Of a stretch of DNA of 64,000 nt, positions 14,140-59,821 are shown in pieces. This DNA is from an uncultured bacterium. GTDB taxonomy: Bacteria; Zhuqueibacterota; QNDG01; DSAB01. The notes below the pieces were generated by a model that worked only from the letters and a program-made list of their open reading frames with translations, ran no database searches and was not told the DNA's origin. The position numbers and the translations under genes are program-made. The stretch lies in the NCBI GenBank assembly GCA_964537715.1, contig CAZIAH010000005.1, forward strand, positions 4,465 through 68,464, in the 5' to 3' direction. How positions within the stretch are numbered: the stretch's first letter is position 1; every line of letters begins with the position of its first letter.

Positions 14140-14225
14140 GTTTTGGCCTTAATTAAATAACAAACGGACAACAGAGAACGAAGAGTTTTTTCTTCCGTTT
14201 CCCATCTTCCATGTTCCGTTCTCCT

Positions 14226-17615: not shown

Positions 17616-19088
17616 TTATGAAGATTTTTTCCGTTTCTGCAAATCTTTTTCAATTGTTATCAACAAGTTATCATTGACCGGATAAAAGAACAGCAATAGA
17701 CCACAAACTGCTAAAAAACCAGCAGGAATAAGACTAAACAACCATTTAATACCATTTAGCGTATGGGGCATGATCGTTTCACCTTTGATGTAGCCGAATT
17801 GGCCCAACATATAAAGCGCCAGAAATCCACCAACAGCCACACCCGCCTTGATTGCAAACATGATCCCGGCAGTGACCAGTCCTGTTGCGCGTTGTTTAAA
17901 TTTCCATTCGTGAAAATCGGCCACATCGGCGAACATGGCAAACAGAAACACCGGCATAGCGCCGGCCAATATCGCCCAGATAAAATTCATAACACAGAGC
18001 AGTATAAAATTAGACTCCGGCAACCAGTAGAAAATCGCACCGAAAAAAGCACCCGCCAATGTGACCACAATGATAGTCAATTTTTTATCAAAATATTTTT
18101 TAAGCGGTGTGCTCAAGAAAACACCGACCATCATACCCACCGTACCAACAGTAAGAAATGTCGTGGTTTGGTCGAAATCGAGTTTGAGCGTACCAATAGT
18201 AAATGACCACAACACCTTGCTGCCCTCGCCGTTCACATAATCAAAATAATAAGCAACCATACCGTTGCGAATCATGTTATGGATGAGCCAGAATATGGAG
18301 GCAACAAATATCACGATCCAGGGGATGTTTTTTGATACATTTTTCAGATCACCAATAAAGGAACTTTTCTGCTCTTTGGGTGGTGCTACACGTTCACGTG
18401 TGGTGAGAAATGTAATGAGCAGCAGAATAATGGCAATAGTTCCGAATACGCCCATCGTTACCTGGAAACCCAATGCCTGGCTGTAACCCAGATCAGGATT
18501 GTAGCCCGGATGTGACGGATTATTTCCAAAGAACCGAGCCAAAGGCAGAGTGAACGTCGTAATCAGCATCGCACCAACAAAGGCGAAAAAGAAGCGGTAC
18601 TGTGCCAGCGTCGTCCGCTCTTTGGGATTTGGCGTCATCACTGCCATCATCGAGGAGTAGGGAATGTTGATAGCCGTGTACGCCATGGTGGCTAAAATAT
18701 AGGTGACATAGGCATAAACCACTTTCATACTTTGGCTGAGGTCCGGCGTGATGAACATAGCGAAGGCCAGAATACCGTAGGGAACAGCCATCCACAATAA
18801 ATAGGGGCGAAATTTACCCCAGCGGGTATTGGTTCTGTCCGCAATCATCCCCATGATAGGATCGTTAATCATATCCCAAACACGAGTGATGAGGAACATG
18901 AAACTGGCCACTTTTGCGTCGATACCAAACACATCCGTGTAAAAAATCATCAGAAAGAAGCTCCAGGCCTGGTACAGAATATTGGACGCCGTATCCCCAA
19001 GTCCGTAGCCGATCTTTTCGACAACGGATAAGTGATTGCCTAAGCCACTAAAGTTTACTTCCGAAGCCGAATTTTTGTGTTCGTTCAC
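17616..19088 (-). CDS. GPH-family glycoside-pentoside-hexuronide:cation symporter (MFS superfamily)
   Basis: 490 aa. 12 predicted TM segments. GPH signature region GYGLGD..NILYQ..FFLMIFYTDVFGI...DRTNTRWGKFRPYLL. Confidence 0.85.
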   Translation of the reverse strand: MNEHKNSASEVNFSGLGNHLSVVEKIGYGLGDTASNILYQAWSFFLMIFYTDVFGIDAKVASFMFLITRVWDMINDPIMGMIADRTNTRWGKFRPYLLWMAVPYGILAFAMFITPDLSQSMKVVYAYVTYILATMAYTAINIPYSSMMAVMTPNPKERTTLAQYRFFFAFVGAMLITTFTLPLARFFGNNPSHPGYNPDLGYSQALGFQVTMGVFGTIAIILLLITFLTTRERVAPPKEQKSSFIGDLKNVSKNIPWIVIFVASIFWLIHNMIRNGMVAYYFDYVNGEGSKVLWSFTIGTLKLDFDQTTTFLTVGTVGMMVGVFLSTPLKKYFDKKLTIIVVTLAGAFFGAIFYWLPESNFILLCVMNFIWAILAGAMPVFLFAMFADVADFHEWKFKQRATGLVTAGIMFAIKAGVAVGGFLALYMLGQFGYIKGETIMPHTLNGIKWLFSLIPAGFLAVCGLLLFFYPVNDNLLITIEKDLQKRKKSS

Positions 19089-19108
19089 TCTTAATTTTTC
19101 CTTCCGCC

Positions 19109-30540: not shown

Positions 30541-33292
30541 CTTGTATCCTTGGGTTATCTTCAGGAAGTTGGTCGCCGATAAAATCCAGCAATTCAATAG
30601 CGTTCAGACACCATTGTGCAGTGTTATTGGTGGAAACTCCCTTCACCTCATACACCGGCTGCAGGCTTTGAACTCCGTCAAATAGCTGCATAGTGAAATC
30701 AGTATAATAATATCTGTCTCCGGTATTAAAAAACTCATCCCAGGCTCTTTCTGCATAGGTTTTGTCCCCCGTCATTTTCGCATAATAGGCCGGAAGACGG
30801 GCATACCATGGGCCAGGTTTCCCCAACTCAACCGCTATACCGAATTCTTTTTCAATTTCATTTTCAGGTGCGGCATATAATCTACAGAACTGCATCCAAA
30901 GTTTGTCCCATTTTTTATCCTGAAGAAGATGGGTCAATTCAAAAGCAACTTCAGGACCTCCCATCAAAACAGATAAATGTAGATAGCCGATATCATTTTC
31001 ATCCAGTTGATGCAATTTGTAGGTTTCCGGATCGTATCCAAAGGCCGCTCGCTTGCCGGAATAGAAACCATAGGGCATGTCATACAAACTGTTCACTCCG
31101 GCCATGATTCGGTCACGATACATTGTATTCCCTGTGCGTTCCCATTCAGTCATCCAGTTGCCAACCAAGGCCAGCCAGTCAGGGCCAACGCGGGCGTGGG
31201 TTGGGTATTTGCTTTTTTCCAATATCAAACGAAGCGGATCAATTTTGCCAATTGCTTCGTTGGAAGCATCCACAGTCGCACGCATCAAATCGCCTGTTCG
31301 TTCATCCGTGGTGAGATAATAATAAAATCGACCTAAAGCTGCCTGCGAAATACGCACCTCTTTGGCGCCGCAGCCCCAATGAATCACGTTGTGACGGGAA
31401 CCCAATCCCTTAAACCGTCCCAAATGATAGACATCGACTTCGCCCGTGTGACGCATCATCGCCTCTGCCATGCGGAAAATATCTTCACGTCCAGATCTCA
31501 GATAACTGTACCACAACCACAGGTTGGGCATCAATTCGGTATTGTCCCAGGCATAGCCTCCCATATCGTATTTCCAGGTGTGCCGGTCATGATCGTAACT
31601 ATGCCTTATGTCACCATAATTCCAGAAGCCATACCAATGCCTCTGCTCCACTTCCAACTGATAGTATTTAATCGCATTGTCAAGCTGATCCTCTATCCAG
31701 CGCTTTCCTTTTGTACTTCGGTCAGGTAAACTCCACACGCCGAAAACAGGAATGCTGTGGATATATTCCGAAGAGACAATAAGTAAAGGTGGTTGATTCC
31801 CCAGGTGTACAATTTTATTCAAGGTTCCATAAGACGGTACTTCGGGTGATGCATACAGCAGAATTTCGCTTGTGCGAGCTACCCCGGTGGCTGTGCTGAA
31901 TCCCGGTTGAACATCTTCATAACTGGCCTGGAGTGTGTGGCCCCAGGCAAGTGTGTCGTAATGACGCATGTCCATGGCCTCGGCCTCAGGAGACCAGAGC
32001 CAGGCCATCAGTTGGGCCTCATCATCTTTAACATTGCGAATTTCCAACGCTGATGGAAAGGATTGCCAAAAATCACGAACACAAACCGTCAATCCGCCGG
32101 ACACATCCCCGACAAAAGCCATTCCTTCGGAACGTTTGCCATAGCCGGCGTCAATCCAGGCGCTTTCATTGTTGGTTCTTTTTTGCACCCGAAATCCATC
32201 GGCATTCAATTGTTCCAGCCTGAAATCATTCCAGCTTGCCCAGTGCTCAAACAGGAATTGTACTTTTTCAGGGAAACTATCAGGTTCGGCAATCCGTTCG
32301 CCTGTAAGCTGTTTGGCGTAAAAGTTTTCACGGGTTTCAAAATTAAAGAGCGGGAAACTGCCGTTGAGCGGCTGGCATGGTTCATCCCACAATCCTCCGT
32401 TTACTCCCGAAAAACGAATATGCCGGTTATATAACTGTTCATCCAACGGCACGTTAAAAACCAGCCCCAGACCACGGATAAAATCTTTTTGTTGATCCCC
32501 ATCGTAAACAATGGTATTTACCATACGAATCGATTGCAGTCCGGCATAAAAATACAACCGGACAATAAATGGCAACCAGCTTCGGTTGGTTGAGTCCGAC
32601 ACGTGCCTGCCTTCAATTTTAACCACTGCCCTGACCGGACCACTCTGCTCGATGGTTACTCTTTCGACTATACCTGTGAACTTTTCTTTGGATGGCTGAA
32701 CACCGAATTCCTGATCCGGTCCATTCTGAAGAATACAAATCAGTTTTCCATCGGAAGAAATTACTTTTCCATTCATTTTTATAGAACGAATTAAGAGTCT
32801 GCCAATTTTTGGAATTTCGCATTGCATAATACCGGTACTAATCAGTAAAGCATCATTGGATTCAGATAATTCGACCTTTGTTTTTGGCAGATTAGCGCCG
32901 GACTTTTTTACATGTTCCAGTACGAAAGCAGTTCCGGCATTGGAATCGACTACAGCGCTTAGGCCTACCCATTTTAGGGAACCATCCGGCCAATATGCCA
33001 AAGGCCAGGATTGCACAGGCAAAGCCTCTCCCTGTTCATTTTTCAATATATAACTGCTCGATGGATCAATCTCCCCTTCCGGCAGCGGCACACCCCAACT
33101 TACTCCTGCTGAAATCGACGGGGCCTTTCCTCCAAGCCATGATAGTTTAATCGGGTCGACTTCCCGGGCAAATAGCGTATCCTGATCAATACCAACAATG
33201 ATTAATAACCAGCAAAATAGAATTAGCCAAATTCTTTGCTTACATCGATAATGATGTTGTAAGGTTATCAAATTATTTCTTATGAATTGCAT
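30530..33292 (-). CDS. Large secreted protein of unknown family (candidate polysaccharide lyase/hydrolase with alpha-helical toroid-like C-region)
   Basis: 920 aa. Signal peptide IWLILFCWLLIIVGIDQDTLFA. Trp/Tyr-rich helical segments (HWYGFWNYGDIRHSYDHDRHTWKYDMGGYAWDN, NLWLWYSYLRSG). No family recognised. Confidence 0.4.
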   Translation of the reverse strand: MQFIRNNLITLQHHYRCKQRIWLILFCWLLIIVGIDQDTLFAREVDPIKLSWLGGKAPSISAGVSWGVPLPEGEIDPSSSYILKNEQGEALPVQSWPLAYWPDGSLKWVGLSAVVDSNAGTAFVLEHVKKSGANLPKTKVELSESNDALLISTGIMQCEIPKIGRLLIRSIKMNGKVISSDGKLICILQNGPDQEFGVQPSKEKFTGIVERVTIEQSGPVRAVVKIEGRHVSDSTNRSWLPFIVRLYFYAGLQSIRMVNTIVYDGDQQKDFIRGLGLVFNVPLDEQLYNRHIRFSGVNGGLWDEPCQPLNGSFPLFNFETRENFYAKQLTGERIAEPDSFPEKVQFLFEHWASWNDFRLEQLNADGFRVQKRTNNESAWIDAGYGKRSEGMAFVGDVSGGLTVCVRDFWQSFPSALEIRNVKDDEAQLMAWLWSPEAEAMDMRHYDTLAWGHTLQASYEDVQPGFSTATGVARTSEILLYASPEVPSYGTLNKIVHLGNQPPLLIVSSEYIHSIPVFGVWSLPDRSTKGKRWIEDQLDNAIKYYQLEVEQRHWYGFWNYGDIRHSYDHDRHTWKYDMGGYAWDNTELMPNLWLWYSYLRSGREDIFRMAEAMMRHTGEVDVYHLGRFKGLGSRHNVIHWGCGAKEVRISQAALGRFYYYLTTDERTGDLMRATVDASNEAIGKIDPLRLILEKSKYPTHARVGPDWLALVGNWMTEWERTGNTMYRDRIMAGVNSLYDMPYGFYSGKRAAFGYDPETYKLHQLDENDIGYLHLSVLMGGPEVAFELTHLLQDKKWDKLWMQFCRLYAAPENEIEKEFGIAVELGKPGPWYARLPAYYAKMTGDKTYAERAWDEFFNTGDRYYYTDFTMQLFDGVQSLQPVYEVKGVSTNNTAQWCLNAIELLDFIGDQLPEDNPRIQDEE

Positions 33293-33471
33293 GGCTATCT
33301 GAGTTTTATATTTTTAAGCACATCTCAAACACAACTCGTGTTTTGAACTGCAATTACATATATCATAGAGTCGGTATCAATGGGCTAACCGCAAATCCCA
33401 GTTATCAATGGTGGTTAAACTTTTTCCATCTTTATCACTCAGGGTAACATAAATATCATTATATATTTTTT

Positions 33472-34704
33472 TTATTTTGAATTCTTTAAACGGATAATCT
33501 CTATACCTGCATCAATCACAGGCCCCAGACCGTGTTTTTCATTTGGTCGTGCCGGACGGTTGTAATAAAAAACCATATCATCCTCAATTCCTGTACCTAC
33601 GCAAATATCTTTTACCTGGCCGTTGGGCAGGATCTTTTCTTTCTTGAGTCCGTTCCATCCTGTAATCGCTATTGAGCTGTATCTTTTATCAATCCAGCCT
33701 TCATTCACTGCGCGGGCAATTCCATATACAAACATAGCTGAACATGAAGATTCTGTATATGAATCTGTCCGGTCTAACACCTGGTGCCATAATCCATCCG
33801 GCCCCTGGTATTTGGAAATGCCAATAATTTGTCTTTCCAGATTTTTAATAATCAATTCTCTTTTGGGATAATCAGCAGGTAAAATATTTAACAAATGCAC
33901 CTGGGCCATCATAACCCAACCATTGCATCTACCCCAATGGGCAACGCCGTTTCTTTTAAGATCGCTGTAATAACAGTGCCAATAGATTTCTTTATTTTCA
34001 TCCCAAAGATACTCAGAGAAATTCAATACCTGGTGAATGGCGTCATCGTAGTATTTAGTTTCGCCAGTAAACTTTCCCAGCCTGACAAGAAAAGGCACGC
34101 TCATGTATAAATCATCGGCCCATAATGTCATTTTATGCGGAAACGTACGTACCAGTGTGCCGTCTTCCAGGCGTTCCTGTCCTTCAGATATACGTTTGGC
34201 GCCTTTTAGGACATATTCTTTGTACTCAGGATGTTTAACTTTTTCATAAACATCCATGATACTGGCCCCCATAGCTCCAAAATCATCCAGTTCTTTCATA
34301 GTCCATAGCTGGCCAAAAGGATACAGATAATGGGGCCGGTCATTCTTAAATCTTTCCTGGAAAAACTTATAGTTGTCAAATCCAAAAGCGATATGCCTGG
34401 CGGCGAAATCAAAATACTTGTCATCATTTAGAAATATGCTCAGGTTGATCATTGCCATGTTGAGCACGCCCATAGTATAATGCCACTCTCCAAATGGACT
34501 TTTGAATTTCACATCTATATCATCCGGTATTTCATTGGTGGTATTATATATTTTTCCGTCGTCTACGCCTACAAATTTAAACTCGGCATGAATTATAATG
34601 TTATCTGCAACTCTTCTTACAACAGCTTCATCCGAATCACTGTTTTGTGCGCTTAGTAATGAAACAAGCATAAATATCAGGCAGATCGGAATTATTTTTT
34701 TCAT
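33472..34704 (-). CDS. GH105/GH88 unsaturated rhamnogalacturonyl/glucuronyl hydrolase, secreted
   Basis: ORF 33472..34767. ATG at 34704 is preceded by GGAGAAGAAG and gives MKKIIPICLIFMLVSLLSA. Motifs LWADDLYM and HWGRCNGWVMMA typical of the YteR/GH105 fold. Confidence 0.8.
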   Translation of the reverse strand: MKKIIPICLIFMLVSLLSAQNSDSDEAVVRRVADNIIIHAEFKFVGVDDGKIYNTTNEIPDDIDVKFKSPFGEWHYTMGVLNMAMINLSIFLNDDKYFDFAARHIAFGFDNYKFFQERFKNDRPHYLYPFGQLWTMKELDDFGAMGASIMDVYEKVKHPEYKEYVLKGAKRISEGQERLEDGTLVRTFPHKMTLWADDLYMSVPFLVRLGKFTGETKYYDDAIHQVLNFSEYLWDENKEIYWHCYYSDLKRNGVAHWGRCNGWVMMAQVHLLNILPADYPKRELIIKNLERQIIGISKYQGPDGLWHQVLDRTDSYTESSCSAMFVYGIARAVNEGWIDKRYSSIAITGWNGLKKEKILPNGQVKDICVGTGIEDDMVFYYNRPARPNEKHGLGPVIDAGIEIIRLKNSK

Positions 34705-34774
34705 CTTCTTCTCCAATTTGTTGGGTAATGAAACAATCTTCATATTGTAAGAAATAACGTATTTCAATAGTGCT

Positions 34775-34950
34775 TACTTTTTCTTATTCATCCAGAAAGG
34801 TGATGTACCAAACCATAGAATTGTTCCGAGCAGCATGAGATTCTTGCAGGAATCCAAATCAAATCCATTAGAAAAAACCATGATAGATGGAATAAGAGTT
34901 AATGCCAAACCAGTAAATGAAACGATCTTTAAACTTATTTTAAACATTTT
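34775..34950 (-). CDS. Small two-TM membrane protein (58 aa) immediately downstream of the NCS1 permease
   Basis: Below the 60-aa threshold of the ORF track. ATG 34950, TAA at 34775. Translation MFKISLKIVSFTGLALTLIPSIMVFSNGFDLDSCKNLMLLGTILWFGTSPFWMNKKK. Its start is 9 nt after the permease stop. Confidence 0.35.
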
Positions 34951-34958
34951 ATGACTCC

Positions 34959-36359
34959 TTATGCTGACTTGATTTTAGATTTTTGAATCATCATGCTTAC
35001 AACTAAGTATACAATTGATGCCACAAACCACCCCGGAAGACCAAGGAAAAATATTTCGATACCCAAGGATCTATTAAGATAAACACTAAAACCAAGTGTT
35101 AACACCCAGGCCAGCGCAGCGGCAACATTAAAACTCTTATTAAATATTTCCGCATAATTGGATTTTAATCCCATTTTGGGAATGATATAAACATCCATGA
35201 GAATGACCGCTCCCATCGGCATCAGGATCAATCCATACAGAGCCACAAATTCCAATAACTTCATAACCAATGCCGGGAAAAGGGCTGCTGTGGTTGTTAT
35301 TGCTCCAACAACGGCCGTTACACGCCATGTTTGCCAGGATGGTTTGATGGCTTGCAAAGCCAAACCGGCCCGGTAAATTGTTGGATTAGCCGTTGTCCAT
35401 CCGGCGATGACCACACACAAGGCTCCAGCGATACCAGCCGCACGAAAAGCAACAGGACCAGGGGCAAATTGAGTACTGCCTGCAGATTCCAGAAGGAAAA
35501 GCGAATATAAAATTCCGGACGCCAGCCATGCGATATAATGCCCCAAATACATACCTGTTGCCGAAGAGAGACCATAATACCATTTTTTGGCATAACGCAA
35601 AATAGAGAGATCGGCCATACCTATGTGCATCGCCATATTGACAAACCAGGCGAAAAAGAGCACATGCCAAAAAGTGAATTTACTCTGACCAGCAAGCGGT
35701 GTACCTGTCCAAATGGTATCATTTGCTTTTGTCCAAAAATCTGACAGAGAGTGAACGCCCAAATCCGGCAAAACAGCAACAGCTGCTGCTACAAATACCA
35801 TTATCATCCAGGGAGCGGCTATATTTGCAACCCTTGAGATTTGAGTATAACCAAACATGGCAACAAGTGTGGTCACAATTCCTACAGCGAGAACAGTAAC
35901 AACCCAGCTTACGCTATTTGGATAGAAATCATTTAATGAAGGCATTGCCATATGAAAAGGAATACCAACTGCTGTTGCCGACACGGCAATCATTGAACCG
36001 GCAAGAAAACAAAACATAAGCGCATTTACTATGTTATAAATTGATGTAACTTTTTTTCCGCCGATTTTTTCAAGTAAATAATAAAGAGTCAATCTTTTTT
36101 GGGTAGCAACCGGACCGGTAATAAAAGCCCAGCTTAAAACAGCTAACAGATTTCCCAGTAACAGACCTAAAATTAAATCACCTGCTGCAACGCCATGTGC
36201 TACGAACAGTGGTCCAATAACAAATTCTGTCCCAGCCGTATGTTCGCCTGCGTACATTCCGATAAAACTTCCCCAACCTTTCCGGCTTTTTTCCGGAACC
36301 GGGATTCGCTCAAATTCCTCAACAGAATCCAACTGCCCTTTAATTGATTTTTTTGCCAT
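34959..36359 (-). CDS. NCS1-family permease (cytosine/purine/uracil/thiamine/allantoin permease family)
   Basis: 466 aa. 12 TM segments. N-terminal PEKSRKGWGSFIGMYAGE...LLGNLLAVLSW aligns with the CodB-type P..SRKG...LIGNLLL block. SD GAGGAGAAAAGT before the ATG. Confidence 0.65.
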   Translation of the reverse strand: MAKKSIKGQLDSVEEFERIPVPEKSRKGWGSFIGMYAGEHTAGTEFVIGPLFVAHGVAAGDLILGLLLGNLLAVLSWAFITGPVATQKRLTLYYLLEKIGGKKVTSIYNIVNALMFCFLAGSMIAVSATAVGIPFHMAMPSLNDFYPNSVSWVVTVLAVGIVTTLVAMFGYTQISRVANIAAPWMIMVFVAAAVAVLPDLGVHSLSDFWTKANDTIWTGTPLAGQSKFTFWHVLFFAWFVNMAMHIGMADLSILRYAKKWYYGLSSATGMYLGHYIAWLASGILYSLFLLESAGSTQFAPGPVAFRAAGIAGALCVVIAGWTTANPTIYRAGLALQAIKPSWQTWRVTAVVGAITTTAALFPALVMKLLEFVALYGLILMPMGAVILMDVYIIPKMGLKSNYAEIFNKSFNVAAALAWVLTLGFSVYLNRSLGIEIFFLGLPGWFVASIVYLVVSMMIQKSKIKSA

Positions 36360-36401
36360 ACTTTTCTCCTCTACAAAATCCGGTACTGTTTTGCAATAAA
36401 G

Positions 36402-37040
36402 TCAATAAATAATTAAATGTTGTTCTTTAGGGCCATGCATACCAAGGATTAATTCCATGGAAATGTCCGCTGTACGACTTGGGCCCGAAATAACAATCGT
36501 ATTACTCGGGTTTGTAAATTTTTCTATACCTTTACAACGACAATCTTCAATCCAGCTTTCAAAGTCAGCGAAAATCTGCCCTTTTTTGATCAGGGCAATA
36601 TGAACTTCCGGCAACAAAGAAGCTGTACGTTGGCGACCTTTCCCGGAACGAAGTACGATACTACCGGTTGCTGCCAAAGCTGCACTGACACCTGTTATGC
36701 CAAACCGGATACTTTCTTGTTGTGTAATTTCGATTCCATTGTCTTCTAAAGACTGGTAAAGATTTTTAATCGGCAAATTTTCTGAACTCCAGCAATTGAC
36801 CTGCTGGTCGTTGCCAATAATTTTAAAAAGTGTTTTTTGTGCATCCTTTTCATTGGTGCAGATCGTTACCTGGGCAGAGAGTTTTTCTGCTTCTGATTTA
36901 AAATATTCCAAAAGTGATGCGGGATCCTTCTTGTCCAGTTTAACCATTGGTAAATAGTTTTCAACCCGGCTTTTCTCTGGAAAGGGAACCGCAATATTTT
37001 TGAGCTTATTTAAAATATCATCCCGACTGTTACTCATCAT
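36402..37040 (-). CDS. lutC: LutC-like lactate utilisation protein C (LUD/YkgG domain)
   Basis: 212 aa. ATGA overlap with the LutB stop. Size, composition and position are typical of LutC. Confidence 0.65.
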   Translation of the reverse strand: MMSNSRDDILNKLKNIAVPFPEKSRVENYLPMVKLDKKDPASLLEYFKSEAEKLSAQVTICTNEKDAQKTLFKIIGNDQQVNCWSSENLPIKNLYQSLEDNGIEITQQESIRFGITGVSAALAATGSIVLRSGKGRQRTASLLPEVHIALIKKGQIFADFESWIEDCRCKGIEKFTNPSNTIVISGPSRTADISMELILGMHGPKEQHLIIY

Positions 37041-38446
37041 TATTTGCTCCCATCTTTTAATCCATTTTTCCAGAGTTCATAAAAACTTTTAGCAGCAGGT
37101 TTCGGTACTTTGCGGTAACGGGTCCATTTTTTTACTAAACCAGGCATCTTATTTAGGGGAAGCAGGCGTGATACTTTCATCATTATTCCTGTCAAGCCAT
37201 ACAACTTTTCTGACTGATTCGATTTGGCCCAAATCCACATACCGGCTTTCCAGATTTTGGAGCTTTTTTTCTGCTTCGTCAAATCATGACGCAGATCCAG
37301 CAGCATGTGTGGGATATCAATATCGACAGAACAGACCTGTTTACAACTTCCACATAAGGAACTTGCATTGGGCAACTGCGAGGCTTTGTTCAATCCAACC
37401 AGTAAAGGTGTCACCACAGCACCGATGGGTCCGGGATAAACCCAGCCATAGGAATGGCCGCCACTGACACGGTAAACCGGGCAGGCATTCAAACAGGCGC
37501 CACAACGGATGCAGGCCAATGCCTCGGTGTAGCCACTCCTATAAATATCAGACCTGCCGTTATCGATTATGATAACATAGACTTCAAGTGGGCCATCTTC
37601 TTCATCACTGCGGCGTGGTCCGTTTATGATATTGGTATAAACCGTCATCGATTGACCGGTTGCGTTGCGCGGTAGTATTTGGGCCAGAGTCGCATAATCT
37701 TCCAGCGTAGGAATGATTTTTTCAATACCAACAACGGCAATATGTATCGGCGGCAGAGATGTAACCATCCGACCGTTCCCCTCGTTGGTGGCCAAGCAAA
37801 GGGAGCCGCTTTCGGCAATTATAAAGTTACCGCCACTGATCCCCACATCCGCCTGCAGGAACTCTTTGCGCATATGACCACGCACAAAATGTGTCATAGT
37901 CTGGGTATCGTCGGTAGGGGGCATGCCGATTTTCTCCACCAGCGTATCACGGATGCTTGCTTTTGTGCGGTGAATCACCGGCACAACAATATGACTGGGA
38001 TGATCACCGCTTATCTGGATAATATATTCACCCAGATCGCTTTCAACCACCTGTACATCGTTCTTTTCGAGAAAGTCGTTCAGTGCGATTTCTTCAGTGA
38101 CCATACTTTTGCTTTTAATCACTTTTTTAGCCTGTTTCTGCCGAATGATCTCCAGAACTTTACTGTTTGCTTCAGCAGCATCTTTCGCCCATAAAACATT
38201 AATGCCGTTTTTTTGCATTTGTTTTTCAGCCTGTTCTAAAAGCTGTGGCAGGTTATTTAAAGCATTCCGTTTAATTTGAGCGGCTTGCTGGCGTATTTTT
38301 TCGCCATGATCCTGCCCGGAAATAAACACAGCGGATTTCCTATTGGTATAGGCGAGATTCGTTCCAAAGCTGATCGCAGATTGCAGATCAGCATCGGCAA
38401 TGGCTTTTCGTGCTTCCTTCGTAAAATTTTCAGACTTGATTTTCAT
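37040..38446 (-). CDS. lutB: LutB-like iron-sulfur lactate utilisation protein (4Fe-4S ferredoxin domain, YkgF family)
   Basis: 468 aa. CIRCGACLNACPVYRVSGGHSYGWVYPGPIGAVVTPLL 4Fe-4S cluster motif typical of LutB/YkgF. Confidence 0.85.
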   Translation of the reverse strand: MKIKSENFTKEARKAIADADLQSAISFGTNLAYTNRKSAVFISGQDHGEKIRQQAAQIKRNALNNLPQLLEQAEKQMQKNGINVLWAKDAAEANSKVLEIIRQKQAKKVIKSKSMVTEEIALNDFLEKNDVQVVESDLGEYIIQISGDHPSHIVVPVIHRTKASIRDTLVEKIGMPPTDDTQTMTHFVRGHMRKEFLQADVGISGGNFIIAESGSLCLATNEGNGRMVTSLPPIHIAVVGIEKIIPTLEDYATLAQILPRNATGQSMTVYTNIINGPRRSDEEDGPLEVYVIIIDNGRSDIYRSGYTEALACIRCGACLNACPVYRVSGGHSYGWVYPGPIGAVVTPLLVGLNKASQLPNASSLCGSCKQVCSVDIDIPHMLLDLRHDLTKQKKSSKIWKAGMWIWAKSNQSEKLYGLTGIMMKVSRLLPLNKMPGLVKKWTRYRKVPKPAAKSFYELWKNGLKDGSK

Positions 38447-39209
38447 TGCTTATCGCTTCCGCCAGAACACTGGCAAAGTGTTTTACTTTTTTTGTATATC
38501 CCTGTTTGTCCAAACCGCCCTGTATATGCATCATACAGCTTGCATCGCCAAGCAGGATGGTATCTGCTTTGCAGGAAATAATATTATCGATTTTTTTCTG
38601 CAGCATGGCACCGCTTACATCAGCCATCTTTACACTAAACAAACCTCCGAAGCCACAACATGAATCAGAATCGGTCAACTCACTAATTTCAACATTCTGA
38701 ATTCCACCAATCAATTTGCGTGCTTGCAGTCCCAAATTAAGCTGGCGCAGACCATGACAGGAATCATGAAAGGCAACGTGACAGGGCTCAGACAATTTTC
38801 CACCCATTTTTTCAATGCCAAGGCCATCAACAATGAAGGCGCTTAATTCCCAGGTTTTTTCAGCTACATCCAAAGCACGCTGGTAATTTTTCGGATCATC
38901 TTTAAACAGCATCGGATACTCATGCTTTACCATGGCAACACAACTCCCGGAAGGCGATACGATAATTTCGCTTCCGACAAATACATCCAAAAAGTGTTCA
39001 GCCACCAATAATGCATCTTCGCGATAGCCGGCGTTAAAAGCGGGCTGACCGCAGCATGTCTGTTCCTTTGGAAAATCCACTTCAACACCCAGGTGCCGTA
39101 GAATTTTTACCGTAGCAACACCGATATCAGGGAAAAGCGAATCAATAAGACATGTAACAAAGAGTGATACTTTTTTACCCTTAAGATTTTTAGAACTTGA
39201 TTCGGCCAT
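38430..39209 (-). CDS. lutA: LutA-like (Fe-S)-binding oxidoreductase (cysteine-rich CCG domains, YkgE family)
   Basis: 259 aa. Two CCG motifs (TCCGQPAFNAGY, DSCCGFGGLFS). It overlaps the lutB start by 17 nt. Confidence 0.85.
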   Translation of the reverse strand: MAESSSKNLKGKKVSLFVTCLIDSLFPDIGVATVKILRHLGVEVDFPKEQTCCGQPAFNAGYREDALLVAEHFLDVFVGSEIIVSPSGSCVAMVKHEYPMLFKDDPKNYQRALDVAEKTWELSAFIVDGLGIEKMGGKLSEPCHVAFHDSCHGLRQLNLGLQARKLIGGIQNVEISELTDSDSCCGFGGLFSVKMADVSGAMLQKKIDNIISCKADTILLGDASCMMHIQGGLDKQGYTKKVKHFASVLAEAISNENQV

Positions 39210-39242
39210 TGAGGTTATCCTATTTTTTGATTTTAAAAAGGT

Positions 39243-39977
39243 TTAGTTACTGCCAAAAAAACGGGCATATAATTTATCAACTTCGTCTTTACCAATGGGC
39301 ACCAGATTCCCGATTGACTGCATATCAATAATCGAACGGACAATAAAATCAGTCACTTCAAGCTGGTCAAAAGCTTCCAAGATGCTACCGCCGGCCAACA
39401 AAATACATTCATTTTTAATAAGCAGCACCGAGTTATTGTGTGAGATGATATCAACAATTTCCTTGCGCAACTCACGTTCACGGCTGGAATGTTTTTCTAT
39501 TTCAAATTCCGGCAACCTGTCTTGGCGATGATCAAAAAAAGTGTTGGCGATATTTTCGCCAAGTTGTTCACTGGAGGGCAAAGCATAAGGCGCATAGCCG
39601 ACTTTACCACAAATATGGTTTGCTTGTGGGATAATATTTGTGTCGGAAATTTGGCGCATAATACTGAAGGAAACCAATGCTGGTGAATGCGCATGAACAA
39701 TTGCATTAAGATCGGGCCGTTTCTTATAAATCCAACAGTGAAAAGGATACTCTGACGAAACCTTGTTTTTTCCGACCACCGTTCCGTCTTTTTTTACACA
39801 CATGATATCTGACGGCTGCAATTTTCCCTTATCGATACCGGCGGGTGTAATCCAGGTATCGCCATTTTCATCGCGAATGGAAAAATTTCCCCCGTAAAGC
39901 GTCGTCATGCCGTTGTTATAAATGCGATTCATGAAGTGCACAATCTGATCGCGCGGATGTAAAAGATATAATTTCAT
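39243..39977 (-). CDS. rhaD: Class II aldolase (rhamnulose-1-phosphate / fuculose-1-phosphate aldolase family)
   Basis: 244 aa. FucA-like blocks GGNFSIR, SSEYPFHCWIY and DLNAIVHAHSPA. 4-nt overlap with the rhamnulokinase stop, so the rhaD call is by context. Confidence 0.55.
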   Translation of the reverse strand: MKLYLLHPRDQIVHFMNRIYNNGMTTLYGGNFSIRDENGDTWITPAGIDKGKLQPSDIMCVKKDGTVVGKNKVSSEYPFHCWIYKKRPDLNAIVHAHSPALVSFSIMRQISDTNIIPQANHICGKVGYAPYALPSSEQLGENIANTFFDHRQDRLPEFEIEKHSSRERELRKEIVDIISHNNSVLLIKNECILLAGGSILEAFDQLEVTDFIVRSIIDMQSIGNLVPIGKDEVDKLYARFFGSN

Positions 39978-41404
39978 AATGTCTGATATTTCCGATAAGC
40001 TGCTTCCCAGTCTGCCTGTTCCGCAGGTTGATATTGTTCAATTTCAACCAATTGGCTTACAAGTTTACGGCCTTCATCGAGGTTTTTAATTTCTCCCAGG
40101 CTGATCAACTGAACCAAAGCATTCCCCATCACTGTTGCCTCCACCGGACCTGCCTGGACTGGCAAACCGGTCGCATTGGCGGTCATCTGGTTTAATAATT
40201 TGTTTTGTGTGCCTCCGCCAACAATATGTAAAACATCAATTTGTTTGGCTGCTACACTTTTTACTTTATCCAGAACTTCGCGGTAAGCCAGAGCCAGGAT
40301 TTCCAATGCGCAACGAATGATCTCCCCTTCCGATTCAGGAACAGGTTGTTTGCTTTCCCGGCAGATGGTTCGGATGATTTCCGGGTGGTCGCCCGGTGCC
40401 AGCAAGCGTTCACCATTGGGATTGATAATCGATTTTAATGGAGTAGCCTGTTCCGCAAGCTTGGTTAACTCTGCATAGGAATACGATTTTCCTTTTTCCT
40501 GCCAGGTCTTGCGGCACTGTTGCACAATCCACAAACCAACCACGTTTTTGAGCAAACGGAAGGTATTATTCACACCACCTTCGTTGGTGATATTGGCTTG
40601 CAAAGCACTTTCGTTGATGACCGGAGTCTTACTTTCAATCCCGACCAGGCTCCAGGTGCCGCTGCTGATATAAGCAAAATTTGGAGTTTTCGCAGGCACG
40701 GACGTCACCGCGCTGCCTGTGTCGTGACAAGCCGGTGCAATGACCGGGATACCATCGTATTCACCAATTTTTGTTCCCGGCATAACAATTTCCGGAAAAA
40801 TATCTTTGGGGATCCCCAAGGCTGTTATTAGCTCATAGTCCCAGTTTTTCGCGATAGGATTGTACAACTGCGTCGTTGTCGCATTGCTGAACTCGCAGAT
40901 TTTATTTCCGGTGAACCAAAAGTTTAACAAATCCGGGATTGTCAGGAAGGTTTTCGCTGCGGATAAATGAGCGGAATGCTGCACAACAAGGCTTTTCAAT
41001 TGGTAGATCGTGTTAAATGGCAAAAACTGTATGCCTGTTTTTTTAAACACTTCGGCTTTGGGAACCGAAGCAAAAACTTTATCCATCATGCCATCGTTTC
41101 GTGTATCGCGGTAATGGACCGGAATTCCCAGCAAATCGCCTTTTTCGTCGAGCAAGGCAAAATCTATGCCCCAGGTATCAACTCCCAACGATGCCGGTTT
41201 GTATTTCTTGCCTTTTTCAACACCGGTTAAAATATCATGCCAGAGTTGCAGGATGTTCCAGTGCAATGTTCCATTCAGCATCACGGGAATATTAGAGAAG
41301 CGATGCAGTTCTTCAATTTGCAGGGAATTGCTGTCGAAATGAACAGCCATTACCCGGCCTGATTCAGCACCAAGATCTATTGCTAATACTGTTTTCTTCT
41401 TCAT
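39974..41404 (-). CDS. rhaB: Rhamnulokinase (FGGY carbohydrate kinase)
   Basis: 476 aa. Extensive block conservation with E. coli RhaB: AIDLGAESGRVM, HRFSN, GVDTWGIDFALLD, YRDTRN, GIQFLPFNTIYQL, NATTTQL, ISSGTWSL, ANITNEGG, LHIVGGGTQNKLLNQ, GPVEAT. Confidence 0.9.
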   Translation of the reverse strand: MKKKTVLAIDLGAESGRVMAVHFDSNSLQIEELHRFSNIPVMLNGTLHWNILQLWHDILTGVEKGKKYKPASLGVDTWGIDFALLDEKGDLLGIPVHYRDTRNDGMMDKVFASVPKAEVFKKTGIQFLPFNTIYQLKSLVVQHSAHLSAAKTFLTIPDLLNFWFTGNKICEFSNATTTQLYNPIAKNWDYELITALGIPKDIFPEIVMPGTKIGEYDGIPVIAPACHDTGSAVTSVPAKTPNFAYISSGTWSLVGIESKTPVINESALQANITNEGGVNNTFRLLKNVVGLWIVQQCRKTWQEKGKSYSYAELTKLAEQATPLKSIINPNGERLLAPGDHPEIIRTICRESKQPVPESEGEIIRCALEILALAYREVLDKVKSVAAKQIDVLHIVGGGTQNKLLNQMTANATGLPVQAGPVEATVMGNALVQLISLGEIKNLDEGRKLVSQLVEIEQYQPAEQADWEAAYRKYQTL

Positions 41405-41491
41405 TTTTTCTCAAAATTATATGATTTAAGGTTCATCAAATAGATTGCTACACCTGTCACAAACGGACGCGCTATGACAATTTCCGCTCAC

Positions 41492-41512
41492 TGCGATCGC
41501 GATAATATCGCA
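41492..41512 (-). promoter_or_regulatory. Composite palindrome TGCGAT-N9-ATCGCA with nested GCGATCGC and GCGATA-N-TATCGC, upstream of the rhaB operon
   Basis: Plus strand tgcgatcgcgataatatcgca. About 88 nt upstream of the rhaB ATG. A TATAAT -10 (complement 41416-41421) lies about 12 nt from the ATG. Confidence 0.35.
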
Positions 41513-41538
41513 AATTTTTGACGCCATTCTTCTAAAAG

Positions 41539-44500
41539 TCATCGAATCAGCGCCATTTTTCTGGTTTTATTAAAATAGCCGGTTTTTATTGTATAAAAGT
41601 AAATACCTGACGGCAAGTTTTTCATATCAAAAGTAAAATGATGCGCACCGGCTGGAATTTCTTCATTTATAAGCGTCTGAACTTCTTCACCAAGTACATT
41701 ATAGATCGATAATTTTACATGATCCTTTTTTGGTAAATCATAACGAATCGTTGTGGACGGATTAAATGGATTGGGAAAGTTTTGATATAACTGAAATTCA
41801 GTTGGAATACTATTATTGTTATCCGCAATTTCAATACCGGTTAAGGGCTCTGGCAAGATTGTTATTTCATCCAGGTTACCGAAATCATTTCCGGTAGCTG
41901 CAAAGCTGATCGTATTGTCATAACCCGTATTCAGAGTGACGCCAACGCTGTCATACACCCAATTTGTCCATTCACCTGTGCCTTGCATAGTTAAGTTTTG
42001 CGTTGTGCCATTCACAACTAAATTTCCAGTCCGGTTGGCATCACCTAAGGCGTATCGGAAAACCAGCGTACGCTCACCGCCACCGAAACCGGGCATATTG
42101 GTAAATTGGACGGCACTGTTACTGCTATTGGCTTCAAAGTTGGTAAAAGCAGTCCCGTGATAACCCAAATGATTATTTTCAACATATACGGTGCCAATGA
42201 GGGTGGCGTCTTCAGACTGAAATGTGAAATATAACCAGGGTCTGATACTTTGTATAGCAGTTGGGAATGATTCAATTTCACTTGTATCTGTGACGCTAAG
42301 TGTATAATAATATGTTCTTCCATATGTTAGGCCATCGTCAATATATGTATTCAAACTTTTATCCTGAGTATTAATTAATTCAAAGTCCATTCCACCTGTT
42401 TCGGAACGATAAATATTGACAGTGGAAATATTTTCGAAATCCTGAGTGTCCCAAATCAATATGATAGAATTTGTGTCATACCGGTAAGAAACACCGGTAG
42501 GAGTAGCTGGACGAATCGTAGGTGTTGCCTGTACGATATTAGAGTAGACAGACTCATTGTTTTCAATATCATAAGCCGTCACAGCGTAATAATAGGTAGA
42601 ATCGTTTGTAACGTTTGTATCCAGATAGGCGATAGCGGTTCCGACATCACTTAACAATGAAAGACTGTCCGCACTCTTTCCGCGATAAAGCCTGTATCCA
42701 GCCAGATCCAAATCTGAATTTTCGTCCCATTCAATTTGAACAGTATCATCCCAGGCCTGCGTTCGAATGTTCATAGGCTTTGATGGCGGCCTCAAACTAT
42801 CGGGAATGAACATACCAAATCCCAAATAAAATGATGTATGGGGAGGCTGGTTATAACTATCGTTCTGCCAGGCAATGCCTAACCTGTATACCGGATCATG
42901 CATCAGGGTTTTGATGCGATACTCTGTCAAATCAGTTGTAGTATAAATACGCAGATTATTATTGTCCTCTGTTCGCCAAATCACCTCTTCACGCCAGTCG
43001 CCAAAAAGATCCGCCTGCAAGCACGGATTAGCTTTTGTGTCGTTATTGGATGAACAACCATTTGCAAGAAGCAAAATACCGCCGCCATATTTACGGATAT
43101 TTGTGGCATCAAGTAGCTCCCGGCCAAGATCGCCATCCCACCACACAACATGGTTGGTTGATGACGGAACGGGCCCAACATATTCATTGTTCGCGCTTCT
43201 TAAACCATCGGTCCAGCCCCAGCATTCCATGCCAAAAAAACCTTCAACCAGATCACCGGCCGTTGCTCGTTTACCATCGGCATTGGCCGTTAACCAGAGA
43301 ACTTCTCCGGTACGGGCATCAACCAGGCCTGATCCAGGTCCGCTTCCTTCAAAACAACCCCATTTTTCCAATCCAGGTCTATCAGGGAGTATATCCGCTA
43401 AATGCATAGCGTCGCCTGTTTGTTTTCCGATGGCGCTTCTCAGTGTCCAAAGTCCGGTCCCGTCATCATCAATGGCACAGTTTCCATAAATGATCTCATC
43501 TTTATTGTCGCCATCCACATCAGCTACACTTAGGTTATGACTCCCCATTCCTGCCCAATTGGGATATCCTTCAGTGCTTTTAAAATGCCATCGCTTGACC
43601 AGTTCGCCATCAATCAAATCCCAGGCAGCAATTTCTATTTTTTCATAGATACCTCTTGCCCAAATAAAGCTTGGATTTTCACTGCCTAAATAAAGTACTG
43701 CGGCAAGAAAACGGTCCACACGGTTACCCCATGAATCTCCCCAGGAGCTTACACTGCCCCTCGCAGGCTCAAGATTGGTGGTAATCATTTCTGTACCATC
43801 TGTACCATTAAAAACAGTCAGGTATTCCGGCCCGGTGAGAATACGGCCGGTACCGTTTCTGTAATCAGCCGAATGATCAGCGCTGTCAGCGGGACCGGTA
43901 CTGATAAATTCCCCTGTACCATCTTTCGTACCGGGTGCCGTTCGGCACACAACTTCCGCTTTCCCATCTCCATTAAGATCATACACCATAAACGGGGTGT
44001 AATGGGCGCCGGCTCTGATATTAACTCCCAGATCGAGACGCCATAAAAGTGTGCCGTCCATTTCAAGCCCATCCATGATAATATCACCGGTATGTCCGTC
44101 ATGTGCATTATCCTTTGAATTGGATGGGTCCCACTTTAGAACAATTTCATATTCTCCATCACCATCCAAATCTCCGACGCTGCAATCGTTGGGACTGTAA
44201 GAATAGGATACGTCATCAGGTGTTGTTCCCCCTGCCGGCCTTTGCAAGGGGATAGTCAGATAGTTTTGTTGCCAGGGATAGACTATTTTTGACAAATCCT
44301 GCTCAACGCCATCCAGAACGCTGACTACAAAATATTGATCAGAGACCGTTCCGGTACTGTCCAGGAAATTTGTAGAAGCTGTAATTGGTTCTGTATTAAT
44401 CCTTTCCTGTCCACGATAAATATTGAAAGCAATCGTATCCGGATCTGTTGCCAGCAGCCTCCATCCAATGTAAACTCCGCCCTCTGTTGCGACAGCGACC

Positions 44501-57441: not shown

Positions 57442-58479
57442 TTATCCAGTAATCTGGCTAAGTTTTTGTACACCCAAATTTCGATAGACAATCTCATGTT
57501 CAATTTCAACATTGATAGATTTCAGACAATGAATATCATCATTAAGGCATTTAATAAGCAAATTTACAGCTTCCTTTCCTATTTGATATGGGTTTTGGTT
57601 AACAGAATAGAAAGAAATTCCCAGTCTAGAGATTATATCGTTGTCTCCAAATTCACCAAGCATAATATCATCTGGAATCCTGAAATTACTTTCCAATATG
57701 GCGTTGCCGGCACCGAAAGCTACGAGCCCCCCGACGCAAACAATTGCATCAATATCAACACCCTTTTGTAATGCTTTGTATAAAATATTATGAGCGCTTT
57801 CAAACGTAAGTCCCGTTTCTATAATTAAATTTTCATCAATACTGATATTATTCTCCTTAAGCGCCTTCAAATAACCTTCAAATCTGTACCTTGCCACCGG
57901 GATTCCATTATGGGGGCCAATAAACATAATTTTTCTTCTGCCGGCTTGAATAAATTTATTTGTTAATTCAAAGGCAGCTTCATTATCATTAATTGTTACT
58001 GAATTAAAATTCGTATTTCCAATTTTTCGGTCCCAACAAACGATTTTTATTCCTTCTCTTTGAAGTTGTTTATAGAAATCAAGATTCGTGGTTTCATCAA
58101 CTGCGTTTAACAAAATGCCATCGACATTAATATCAGATAAAAACTCCAGCTTTTTCCGTTCATTTTGAGGCTTCTCATCGTGAACCAAAAGAATAGTCTC
58201 ATACCCTTTTTGGGTGGCCTCCTCGTAAATGCCCCGAGTGGCCTCAGAAAAAAAGGAAATCCTCAAATCAGGAATTAAAACACCTATGATGCCACTCTTC
58301 TTGTTAATCAACGATTTAGCGAGCAGATTAGGTCTATATCCCAGTTCCCCAGAAACGCGCTTTACTTTTTCCTTCATCTTATTTGAAATATCAGAGCTTT
58401 CTCGCAATGCCTTTGAGACAGTGGATGGGGTTACTCCCACTTTTTTTGCGATGTCTTTAAGTGTTACTTTCTTTTTCAT
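57442..58479 (-). CDS. LacI-family transcriptional regulator
   Basis: ORF 57442..58506. ATG 58479 gives MKKKVTLKDIAKKVGVTPSTVSKALRE (HTH). Periplasmic-binding-protein-like sugar-binding core. Confidence 0.85.
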   Translation of the reverse strand: MKKKVTLKDIAKKVGVTPSTVSKALRESSDISNKMKEKVKRVSGELGYRPNLLAKSLINKKSGIIGVLIPDLRISFFSEATRGIYEEATQKGYETILLVHDEKPQNERKKLEFLSDINVDGILLNAVDETTNLDFYKQLQREGIKIVCWDRKIGNTNFNSVTINDNEAAFELTNKFIQAGRRKIMFIGPHNGIPVARYRFEGYLKALKENNISIDENLIIETGLTFESAHNILYKALQKGVDIDAIVCVGGLVAFGAGNAILESNFRIPDDIMLGEFGDNDIISRLGISFYSVNQNPYQIGKEAVNLLIKCLNDDIHCLKSINVEIEHEIVYRNLGVQKLSQITG

Positions 58480-58540
58480 AGTTTTATCTTCATATAAACC
58501 AATCATTTAAAGAGAGCATCTCTATAACGAAGAAAGCTCT

Positions 58541-58606: not shown

Positions 58607-59821
58607 TCATTTTCTTTCTTTTTCTATTTGATCTTGATATCCACTTTTAACATATGCATCAACAGGATCGAGAGGTAAATTTTTACTGTATCTCGCCATT
58701 GCAACTATGGGTCGAACGTCAGCGAGCAACAGGGCGTTATTAAATAGACGATTCGCTAAAATGATCTTATCATCGTTTTGATAGGAAAGCAGCTTCTCCT
58801 GGTCTACCAGCATTGCCTTTGCTAATGATATTTGCAACGAATCAATGGAATGAATGACTGCTTCAATTCTTTTTTCTCTGCTACTGCACTGGTCAATCAT
58901 TAAATCCCATTTGTTTGGACCATTTAAGACATCAGCTTTTACTAATTCGTAAAAAATTCTCGCCATTTCTGGCCCTGGTTCCACTGAGTGATCATCATCA
59001 GCAGCATATCGTGTGTTAAAGTGGAATCCACCGGGGATATTATTTACAATTAATCGCGCGACAATCTGCTCAATATTTGTTGAATGATGATGATGCCCCA
59101 TATCAATAAGTACTCCAGCATTAGGACCAAAATTTTGAGCCATCAAAATCACACTACCCCAATCGGGCAATACAGTACTGTAAGTACCAGGTTCAAAAAC
59201 CTTATATTCTATCAGCACTTTTACCGATTGAGATATACTTTTCGCTATTAACCTAAGCGATTCCATTGTGTTGTCGATCACTTTGCTCAATTCCAACTGT
59301 CCAGGATAATTAGAGCCATCAGGAAGCCAGATTGTTAATAGTTTATTAGACAACTCCTCTGCAATTTTTCCGGACAATATGGTTTGATCGATATATCTTT
59401 CTCTCACTTTATCATCATAGGAACTTAAACTTCCCGTATGGGAACCTTTTAAAAAATAGGTTGGATTAATCGAACCGAGTTTTAGCCCTCTCGATTCTGC
59501 GGCATTTTTAACTTCTACGGCCAAATCATAAGAGCCATTCATTCCATCCTCAGAAAAATCCCATAGGGTGTGAGTCGCAATTTGTTTTGCTGCACCGGTC
59601 AGCTCATTTACGAATGCGGCATCATCTAATTTTTCAAAGATACTCCTTGCAAAACCAGGGGGCATATAATCGCCGAACCGACCACCACCGAAAGAACCAA
59701 AAATCCAGCTAGGAATTTCAACTTGAAATTTTTCAACAGCTTCAATTGCGGCGTTTATTTTTTCGTTACCAAATTCTTTCTTGAGATTGATAAGCGATTC
59801 CTTGAGATTTTTAGAATTCAT
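58607..59821 (-). CDS. rhaA: L-rhamnose isomerase, Pseudomonas stutzeri type (xylose-isomerase-like TIM barrel)
   Basis: 404 aa. Block conservation with P. stutzeri L-RhI as recalled: VEIPSWIFGSFGGGRF, IFEKLDD, LTIWLPDGSNYPGQ, YKVFEPGTYSTVLPDWG, LIDMGHHHHSTNIEQIVARLI, GGFHFN, ADDD. Confidence 0.8.
   Translation of the reverse strand: MNSKNLKESLINLKKEFGNEKINAAIEAVEKFQVEIPSWIFGSFGGGRFGDYMPPGFARSIFEKLDDAAFVNELTGAAKQIATHTLWDFSEDGMNGSYDLAVEVKNAAESRGLKLGSINPTYFLKGSHTGSLSSYDDKVRERYIDQTILSGKIAEELSNKLLTIWLPDGSNYPGQLELSKVIDNTMESLRLIAKSISQSVKVLIEYKVFEPGTYSTVLPDWGSVILMAQNFGPNAGVLIDMGHHHHSTNIEQIVARLIVNNIPGGFHFNTRYAADDDHSVEPGPEMARIFYELVKADVLNGPNKWDLMIDQCSSREKRIEAVIHSIDSLQISLAKAMLVDQEKLLSYQNDDKIILANRLFNNALLLADVRPIVAMARYSKNLPLDPVDAYVKSGYQDQIEKERK

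Follow-up and report, generated by a model that had tools for sequence, protein, structure and literature searches.

Genes at the Locus

We analyzed a 64,000-nt stretch of DNA from an uncultured bacterium of the GTDB lineage Zhuqueibacterota (assembly GCA_964537715.1, contig CAZIAH010000005.1, positions 4,465 to 68,464; hereafter, the window), with a focus on a permease gene and the small open reading frame (ORF) that follows it in an L-rhamnose catabolic operon. The operon runs in the order rhaB, class II aldolase gene (presumed rhaD), lutA, lutB, lutC, permease gene, small ORF, and GH105 gene. This order had been proposed in an earlier, model-made reading of the letters (the sequence-only reading), and domain scans confirmed it. 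Every gene in this region lies on the minus strand (Table 1).

Both ORFs of the pair are real. The small protein, previously described as a 58-aa protein with two transmembrane segments, does have two helices, but the 58 codons include the stop. Of the translational coupling proposed earlier, the tight linkage stands, with gaps of 42 nt between lutC and the permease gene and 11 nt between the permease gene and the small ORF, but the genes do not overlap. The small ORF and the GH105 gene are separated by 69 nt. Both genes of the pair are preceded by strong Shine–Dalgarno sequences.

Table 1. Positions of the permease gene, its small partner, other features of the window, and fused homologs in other loci.
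Feature	Sequence	Position	Strand	Details
Permease, 12-helix LeuT-fold (RhaT2-type), predicted L-rhamnose importer core	Window	34959..36359	minus	466 aa; ATG start; ORF and translation
Small two-helix membrane protein, predicted accessory subunit (corresponding to helices 13-14 of fused homologs)	Window	34774..34947	minus	57 aa + stop = 58 codons
Shine–Dalgarno AAGGAG of small ORF	Window	34955..34960	minus	7 nt ahead of small-ORF ATG; overlaps permease stop; read from sequence
Permease TAA stop	Window	34959-34961	minus	
Shine–Dalgarno GAGGAG of permease	Window	36366..36371	minus	6 nt ahead of permease ATG; read from sequence
Rhamnulokinase RhaB, first operon gene	Window	39974..41404	minus	TIGR02627, 523 bits (just below the cut-off of 528); FGGY_N and FGGY_C domains
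Class II aldolase, presumed rhamnulose-1-phosphate aldolase	Window	39243..39977	minus	244 aa; PF00596, E 1e-39
lutA	Window	38430-39209	minus	L-lactate oxidation complex
lutB	Window	37040-38446	minus	L-lactate oxidation complex
lutC	Window	36402-37040	minus	L-lactate oxidation complex
lutABC as a whole	Window	36402..39209	minus	CCG, LUD_dom, Fer4, and LutB_C domains; TIGR00273, 475 bits (above cut-off)
GH105 unsaturated rhamnogalacturonyl hydrolase, last operon gene	Window	33472..34704	minus	PF07470, E 3e-76; N-terminal signal peptide
RhaI-type L-rhamnose isomerase, first cytoplasmic step after uptake	Window	58607..59821	minus	TIGR02635, E 2e-95; PF06134 and PF01261
LacI-family regulator	Window	57442..58506	minus	
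GPH-family cation symporter	Window	17616-19088	minus	TIGR00792; adjoins GH112 phosphorylase
Fused 12+2-helix homolog	L086	8001-9752		Inositol-catabolism cluster
Fused 12+2-helix homolog	L088	5272-6984		Inositol-catabolism cluster
Fused 12+2-helix homolog	L089	8001-9728		Inositol-catabolism cluster
Fused 12+2-helix homolog	L090	7421-9148		Inositol-catabolism cluster

Family and Fold of the Permease

No Pfam or NCBIfam family matched the permease at E-values up to 0.001, and a Pfam search at E-values up to 10 gave noise only. PF02133, the NCS1 model that the sequence-only reading had singled out for comparison, was without a match at either threshold. Ten distant full-length relatives likewise matched neither PF02133 nor any other Pfam or NCBIfam family. 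In the Pfam scans of both proteins and their relatives, matches to DUF997 (E 0.0096) and Mycobacteriophage_TM (E 8.2) were rejected as noise from hydrophobic helices. Searches of the PDB with the permease sequence and two family profiles retrieved no NCS1 or transporter chain; the sole match, to a Borrelia lipoprotein (E 0.13), was attributed to chance.

The AlphaFold2 (AF2) model of the permease has a 12-helix LeuT fold (predicted local distance difference test score, pLDDT, 78.7; predicted TM-score, pTM, 0.79). When this model was searched with Foldseek, the cytosine transporter CodB (7qoa) ranked first (E 2.6e-12, TM-score 0.73/0.83, 18% identity) and Mhp1 next, followed by sodium:solute symporters (SSS), e.g., SiaT, NIS, and SGLT, with sugar and sialic-acid symporters among them. 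A profile of 27 diverse family members (A2) was aligned by hhalign with Escherichia coli CodB at 96.4% probability (E 1.1e-9, 396 columns, 19% identity). In this alignment, PVPEKSRKG of the permease is paired with PVPQSARKG of CodB, and LLLGNLL in helix 2 with VLIGNLL, so the CodB-like P..SRKG and LLGNLL motifs reported in the sequence-only reading are genuine. Residues W321-T322-T323 in helix 8 are aligned to CodB W277-T278-T279, with T323 conserved in at least 90% of the family. In the CodB crystal structure, the hydroxyls of those two threonines bind Na+ (PMC9379551).

NCS1 transporters sandwich their planar substrate between two aromatic residues, a helix-3 Trp and a Phe or Trp of helix 6, which are described as conserved throughout NCS1 (PMC9379551). 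CodB Phe204 is aligned to Ala243, which is invariant in the family alignment (A1). CodB Trp108 is placed opposite a gap, and helix 3 of the family (residues 102-135) is devoid of Trp. At 19% identity, this hhalign-based comparison is only moderately secure. The family has invariant polar residues of its own: helix 1 carries H40 and E45, the break in helix 6 carries H245 and D250, and R255 and H274 are likewise invariant.

Compared with CodB and Mhp1 (NCS1, TC 2.A.39; PDB 7QOA, 2JLN), the permease shares the 12-helix LeuT fold and the PVPxxxRKG, GNLL, and WTT motifs. It differs in its low identity (~18%), in the lack of a family HMM (hidden Markov model) match, in the non-conserved aromatic sandwich, in its two-helix partner (separate or fused), and in its sugar/polyol catabolism context. 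Because it shows fold and profile homology, but neither a match to the family model nor the aromatic pair, the permease is, as far as its sequence tells, a remote NCS1 relative and distant CodB homolog, and not an NCS1 member by the family's own sequence criteria. The NCS1 assignment of the sequence-only reading thus survives as remote homology to CodB.

The Two-Helix Partner and Its Fusion to the Permease

The hydrophobic segments of the small protein (approximately residues 8-25 and 37-53) and the basic residues at both of its ends fit an in-out-in hairpin. Its conserved motif is K.LM..GT..WF.TAPFWMNK. In Pfam and NCBIfam scans, no Pfam family and no similarity to known transporter subunits were detected for it.

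Conservation of the small ORF, a check suggested in the sequence-only reading, was assessed using an HMM built from 53 downstream ORFs. A copy was found beside the permease gene in 86 of 87 loci. The matches were located at most 300 nt downstream of the permease gene and on the same strand in 85 of the 87 (mostly 0-28 nt), and there were none elsewhere in the ~1.4 Mb of six-frame ORFs of those loci. Two loci depart from the usual arrangement: in L055 (3721-3936) the small ORF is located just upstream of the permease gene, and in L057 (11976-12182) it is located ~570 nt downstream. The sole locus lacking a separate small ORF holds a longer permease homolog. Nucleotide identity to the small ORF of the window was 0.575, 0.75, and 0.386 at codon positions 1, 2, and 3, respectively. 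Given this pattern, which is that of coding sequence, and the conservation across loci, the comparison identifies the small ORF as a real coding gene.

Some homologs of the permease (33-45% identity, 560-595 aa) carry a C-terminal hydrophilic linker followed by two helices. This module corresponds to the small-ORF HMM along its full length: the HMM matched the extreme C-terminus of P0138 (E 4e-8, residues 508-562, HMM positions 3-57) and P0224 (E 7e-15), as well as that of P0135, P0133, and P0161 (E 1e-3 to 6e-3). The AF2 model of P0138 reached a pLDDT of 86.6 and a pTM of 0.85, with pLDDT values of 84-97 for the terminal hairpin, and Foldseek ranked CodB and Mhp1 for a fused homolog as it did for the permease of the window. 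Such an occurrence of one gene as a separate ORF in some lineages and as a fusion in others is classical Rosetta-stone evidence that the two products would work as one unit. We infer that the small protein associates physically with the permease and is a subunit of a 12+2-helix transporter. An accessory role had been suggested in the sequence-only reading, and the natural C-terminal fusions strengthen that idea.

Alternatively, the permease could import rhamnose while the small ORF encodes an independent membrane protein, such as a regulator, chaperone, or insertion aid, and not a structural subunit. The absence of detectable similarity to known transporter subunits is in line with this possibility. 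Nevertheless, we regard it as improbable, as the same two-helix module is fused to the permease C-terminus in ~3,000 homologs, AF2 is very confident about the module, and the adjacency of the separate genes is nearly universal and close.

Homologs and Gene Neighborhoods

A word-indexed search yielded >7,900 homologs of the permease, with 838 representatives after clustering at 50%. The best 120 of the >7,900 were 73-100% identical to the permease and had no Pfam domain; they were named "hypothetical" or "purine-cytosine permease-like". The nearest named relative came from a metagenome-assembled genome of the Calditrichaceae. When species-representative genomes were scanned, relatives were confirmed at 549 sites, which belong to Ignavibacteria, Calditrichota, KSB1, Gemmatimonadota, Marinimicrobia, Saprospiraceae, and a large number of Cyclobacteriaceae isolates (e.g., Algoriphagus, Echinicola, Cyclobacterium, and Belliella). 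The pair of permease gene and small ORF recurs in Ignavibacteriota, Calditrichota, KSB1, Gemmatimonadota, and Bacteroidota. Echinicola vietnamensis, for which public transposon fitness data are available, was not among the best 120 matches; several other Echinicola species carry an ortholog.

Neighbors were counted in 84 loci, for which ORFs were predicted and grouped by clustering, and names were given to those clusters that recurred. The most frequent neighbors were a RhaI-type rhamnose isomerase (35 loci, directly upstream in 18), a GntR-type regulator (32 loci, directly upstream in 25), rhamnose mutarotase (27 loci), GH106 alpha-L-rhamnosidase (23 loci), two clusters of FGGY kinases (14 and 7 loci), a LacI regulator (14 loci), and the bifunctional aldolase/dehydrogenase RhaEW (11 loci). 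In 55 loci from other species, the flanks measured 5 kb or more on each side. Of these well-flanked loci, 45 contained one or more rhamnose-specific genes (RhaI in 30, RhaM in 27, GH106 in 21, RhaEW in 10, a long aldolase in seven, and RhaB in six), compared to lutB or lutC in only seven. No other transporter family recurred in the permease loci that we examined. Based on the counts of rhamnose genes versus lutB/lutC, and on the absence of another recurrent transporter, the neighborhoods favor L-rhamnose as the substrate over lactate or uronates. L-rhamnose uptake, as proposed in the sequence-only reading, is thus well supported by context.

In eight Cyclobacterium loci (e.g., L082, 11690-15646), the pair is immediately followed, on the same strand, by a gene for a 1,318-aa protein. 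This protein has ~11 hydrophobic segments and no Pfam match.

Proposed Function and Alternatives

We consider it likely that the pair forms one two-polypeptide secondary transporter that serves here as the inner-membrane importer of free L-rhamnose. In the proposed mechanism, the 12-helix LeuT-fold core, a distant homolog of CodB and Mhp1, and the 2-helix hairpin subunit would together form the transporter. Secreted or periplasmic polysaccharide lyases (PL11, PL26-like, and PL9) and glycoside hydrolases (GH105, GH106, and GH78) would release L-rhamnose from rhamnogalacturonan-I. As the sugar would be freed outside the cytoplasm, an importer in the inner membrane would be needed, and the permease would carry the L-rhamnose into the cytoplasm. 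There, the isomerase RhaI, the kinase RhaB, and the class II aldolase would convert it to dihydroxyacetone phosphate and L-lactaldehyde, and LutABC would oxidize the lactate derived from rhamnose. Transport would probably be coupled to a cation via the Na2 site between helices 1 and 8.

Several points weigh against this proposal. Ten of the 55 well-flanked loci had no rhamnose gene, although the clustering was crude. The permease is the sole transporter of the operon, but not of the window: the sequence-only reading had called it the only candidate for rhamnose uptake in the operon, and the window also encodes a GPH-family symporter whose gene adjoins that of a GH112 phosphorylase. The phosphorylase (17616-21292 region, minus strand) matched TIGR02336 with 797 bits, above the cut-off. 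The GH112 family includes galactosyl-rhamnose phosphorylases, and it is possible that rhamnose also enters as a galactosyl-rhamnose-type disaccharide via these two proteins. The residue-level comparison with CodB rests on an hhalign alignment at 19% identity and is uncertain in helix 3, and the high pLDDT of the fused hairpin says nothing about the position in which it is packed. Finally, we found no transport experiment for any member of the family in the searchable literature.

Another product of rhamnogalacturonan breakdown could be imported instead of free L-rhamnose, namely galacturonate, a small oligosaccharide that contains rhamnose, or the unsaturated uronate that GH105 sets free (or a keto-deoxy derivative of this uronate). 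In the window, the permease gene is located directly upstream of the GH105 gene and among lyase genes, and GH105 genes are also found near the permease gene in a few related loci. We think such a substrate unlikely, because GH105 was found near the pair in only six of the 84 loci, and the recurrent neighbors were rhamnose isomerase, mutarotase, and rhamnosidase, often in loci without any lyase (L001, L003). In addition, the GH105 protein of the window has a signal peptide, which indicates that monosaccharides are made outside the cytoplasm, and the binding region seems to lack a pattern of basic residues that would point to an anionic substrate.

The position of the permease gene immediately downstream of lutABC, with lutB and lutC near the pair also in some other loci such as L010, L016, L047, and L075, would fit the import or export of L-lactate or lactaldehyde for LutABC. 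This alternative, of which the sequence-only reading had raised the lactate part, appears very unlikely. Rhamnose-specific genes far exceeded lutB/lutC among the well-flanked loci, and the lut linkage is explained by LutABC being part of rhamnose catabolism itself, as listed under role YkgF in the supplement of Rodionova et al. 2013 (PMC3870299).

That the permease is an ordinary nucleobase or nucleoside NCS1 transporter, placed in a sugar operon by coincidence, we find hardly credible: its fold, its remote homology to CodB, and the automatic names from JGI, NCBI, and UniRef ("purine-cytosine permease-like", "cytosine permease") speak for it, but there is no PF02133 or NCBIfam NCS1 match, even at E-values up to 10, CodB identity is 18-19%, neither aromatic residue appears to be retained, the permease does not fall in a nucleobase clade, and its neighborhoods are always those of sugar or inositol catabolism and in no case those of nucleobase metabolism. 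The outcome that the sequence-only reading had named as refuting its proposal, a nucleobase clade together with non-sugar contexts, was not obtained.

Fused Subfamily and Other Branches of the Family

Databases contain ~3,000 members of the fused subfamily under the names "nucleoside transporter" or "purine-cytosine permease family protein"; they come from Alteromonadales, Cellvibrionales, Vibrio, and Bacillales. In all three independent contexts fetched, the fused homologs were found amid inositol-catabolism genes of the IolC, IolD, IolE, IolG, IolA, and IolJ types. These homologs are probably inositol transporters that are misnamed in databases.

An unfused homolog with 44% identity to the permease (L085, 110-4781) keeps its own 60-aa partner. 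This pair is located upstream of genes for a 625-aa ADP-ribosylglycohydrolase-family protein, a ribulose-phosphate 3-epimerase, and RpiB, which suggests a third sugar substrate for this branch. Taken as a whole, the family appears to transport sugars and polyols. On balance, we lean towards regarding it as a distinct, uncatalogued LeuT-fold family for neutral sugars and polyols, a sister of NCS1 that would be defined by its 12+2-helix architecture, with the final helix pair supplied either by a separate 57-aa subunit or by a C-terminal fusion.

The distant homologs P0125, P0126, P0129, and P0130 (657-789 aa) and P0124, P0127, P0143, P0153, and P0165 include proteins in which a large insertion breaks the match into two stretches. 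Others among them show GRHTAAPE, a variant of the helix-1 motif, together with acidic tails of low complexity.

Relation to Previous Annotations and Known Transporters

The assignment of L-rhamnose to the permease is a rediscovery of an existing prediction and not new. RhaT2, a predicted L-rhamnose permease of the NCS1 family, is role 43 among the functional roles tabulated in Table S1 by Rodionova et al. 2013 (PMC3870299), so that independent curators had already reached this assignment. The rhamnose transporters treated in the text and tables of that paper are RhaT, RhaY, and RhaFGHJ only, with RhaT2 absent there, and the small subunit is absent among the 47 roles of the supplement (PMC3870299). 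The permease of the window is 67% identical (83% positives, 462 of 466 residues, no gaps) to a protein of Lunatimonas lonarensis that bears the RhaT2 name (EON78443.1/WP_010853201.1). An entry from Cyclobacterium amurskyense has the same RhaT2-type UniRef name, and the wording of role 43 is identical to this name, a typing error included. The permease of the window and the L. lonarensis protein agree in family, predicted function, and type of evidence, i.e., clustering with rhamnose genes. In the window, these genes encode RhaB, the aldolase, LutABC, RhaI, GH106, and GH78. RhaT2 is a name for a predicted role in a supplementary list, and the permease of the window comes from a different phylum-level lineage. 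What appears to be new is the near-universal two-helix partner with its split and fused forms, the lack of a Pfam or NCBIfam model for a family distant from nucleobase transporters, and the fused sister subfamily tied to inositol catabolism despite its nucleoside-transporter names.

The same job as that proposed for the permease, in the same type of operon, is performed by E. coli RhaT (an L-rhamnose:H+ symporter of the DMT superfamily), the ABC transporter RhaSTPQ, and RhaY (MFS), whose folds and families are unrelated to it. Human SGLT1/SGLT2-MAP17, which was among the Foldseek matches, resembles the pair in combining a LeuT-fold core for a neutral sugar with a very small membrane protein. 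MAP17 is single-pass, whereas the partner in the window is a two-helix protein with fused counterparts in a sister subfamily, and the core of the pair resembles NCS1 more closely than SSS. Among bacteria, some SSS permeases likewise have small membrane proteins next to them.

L-rhamnose is a major sugar of pectin. To our knowledge, RhaT, RhaSTPQ, and RhaY are missing from many pectin-degrading lineages, including Ignavibacteria, Calditrichota, KSB1, and Cyclobacteriaceae. If the proposed function is true, it would fill a gap in rhamnose uptake for carbon-cycle and metabolic-model reconstructions and add a fourth, unrelated, and non-orthologous solution for rhamnose uptake. It would also be the first sugar substrate of an NCS1-like protein that we know of. 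Thousands of "cytosine permease" and "nucleoside transporter" names would be wrong, including those of the fused homologs in inositol clusters, and the split and fused forms would offer a natural system for the role of helices 13-14 in LeuT-fold transporters.

The Surrounding Rhamnogalacturonan Locus

A single large locus for the utilization of rhamnogalacturonan-I (pectin) takes up nearly all of the 64-kb window. Its lyases belong to PL11, PL26-like, and PL9, several with sorting domains of the type IX secretion system (T9SS), and its glycoside hydrolases to GH2, GH28, GH78, GH105, GH106, and GH115. The downstream third (1765-15482) encodes GH106 and GH78 rhamnosidases, a second GH105 enzyme with a T9SS sorting domain, two GH28 enzymes, and one GH2 enzyme. 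The window also encodes a TonB-dependent receptor; the organism has a T9SS, and we noticed no SusD-like gene beside the receptor gene of the window. An ortholog of the LacI-family regulator of the window is located directly downstream of the permease pair in loci of Ignavibacteria.

Other Features of the Operon

A scan for promoters and terminators in 33000-42000 gave counts at chance level (19 versus 22 expected, and 13 versus 8) and showed no internal terminator; it was uninformative on operon structure. The class II aldolase (39243-39977) had no equivalog-level match in the NCBIfam scan. It is a plain class II enzyme without a fused dehydrogenase. LutABC requires lactate, yet no lactaldehyde dehydrogenase was seen within the operon. 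An FAD oxidase resembling GlcD (60349-61779), encoded one gene position upstream of the RhaI gene, might take part.

The longest ORF for GH105 (33472-34767) begins with a TTG at 34767, whereas the ATG at 34704 yields a protein with the signal peptide MKKIIPICLIFMLVSLLSAQ. On a 100%-identical public contig (L091), GH105 was called at 410 aa, the same length as that obtained from the ATG. The start is most likely the ATG at 34704 and not the TTG. Because of the signal peptide and the same-length call on the identical contig, we consider this GH105 enzyme to be exported, unlike YteR and YesR of Bacillus, which are cytoplasmic.

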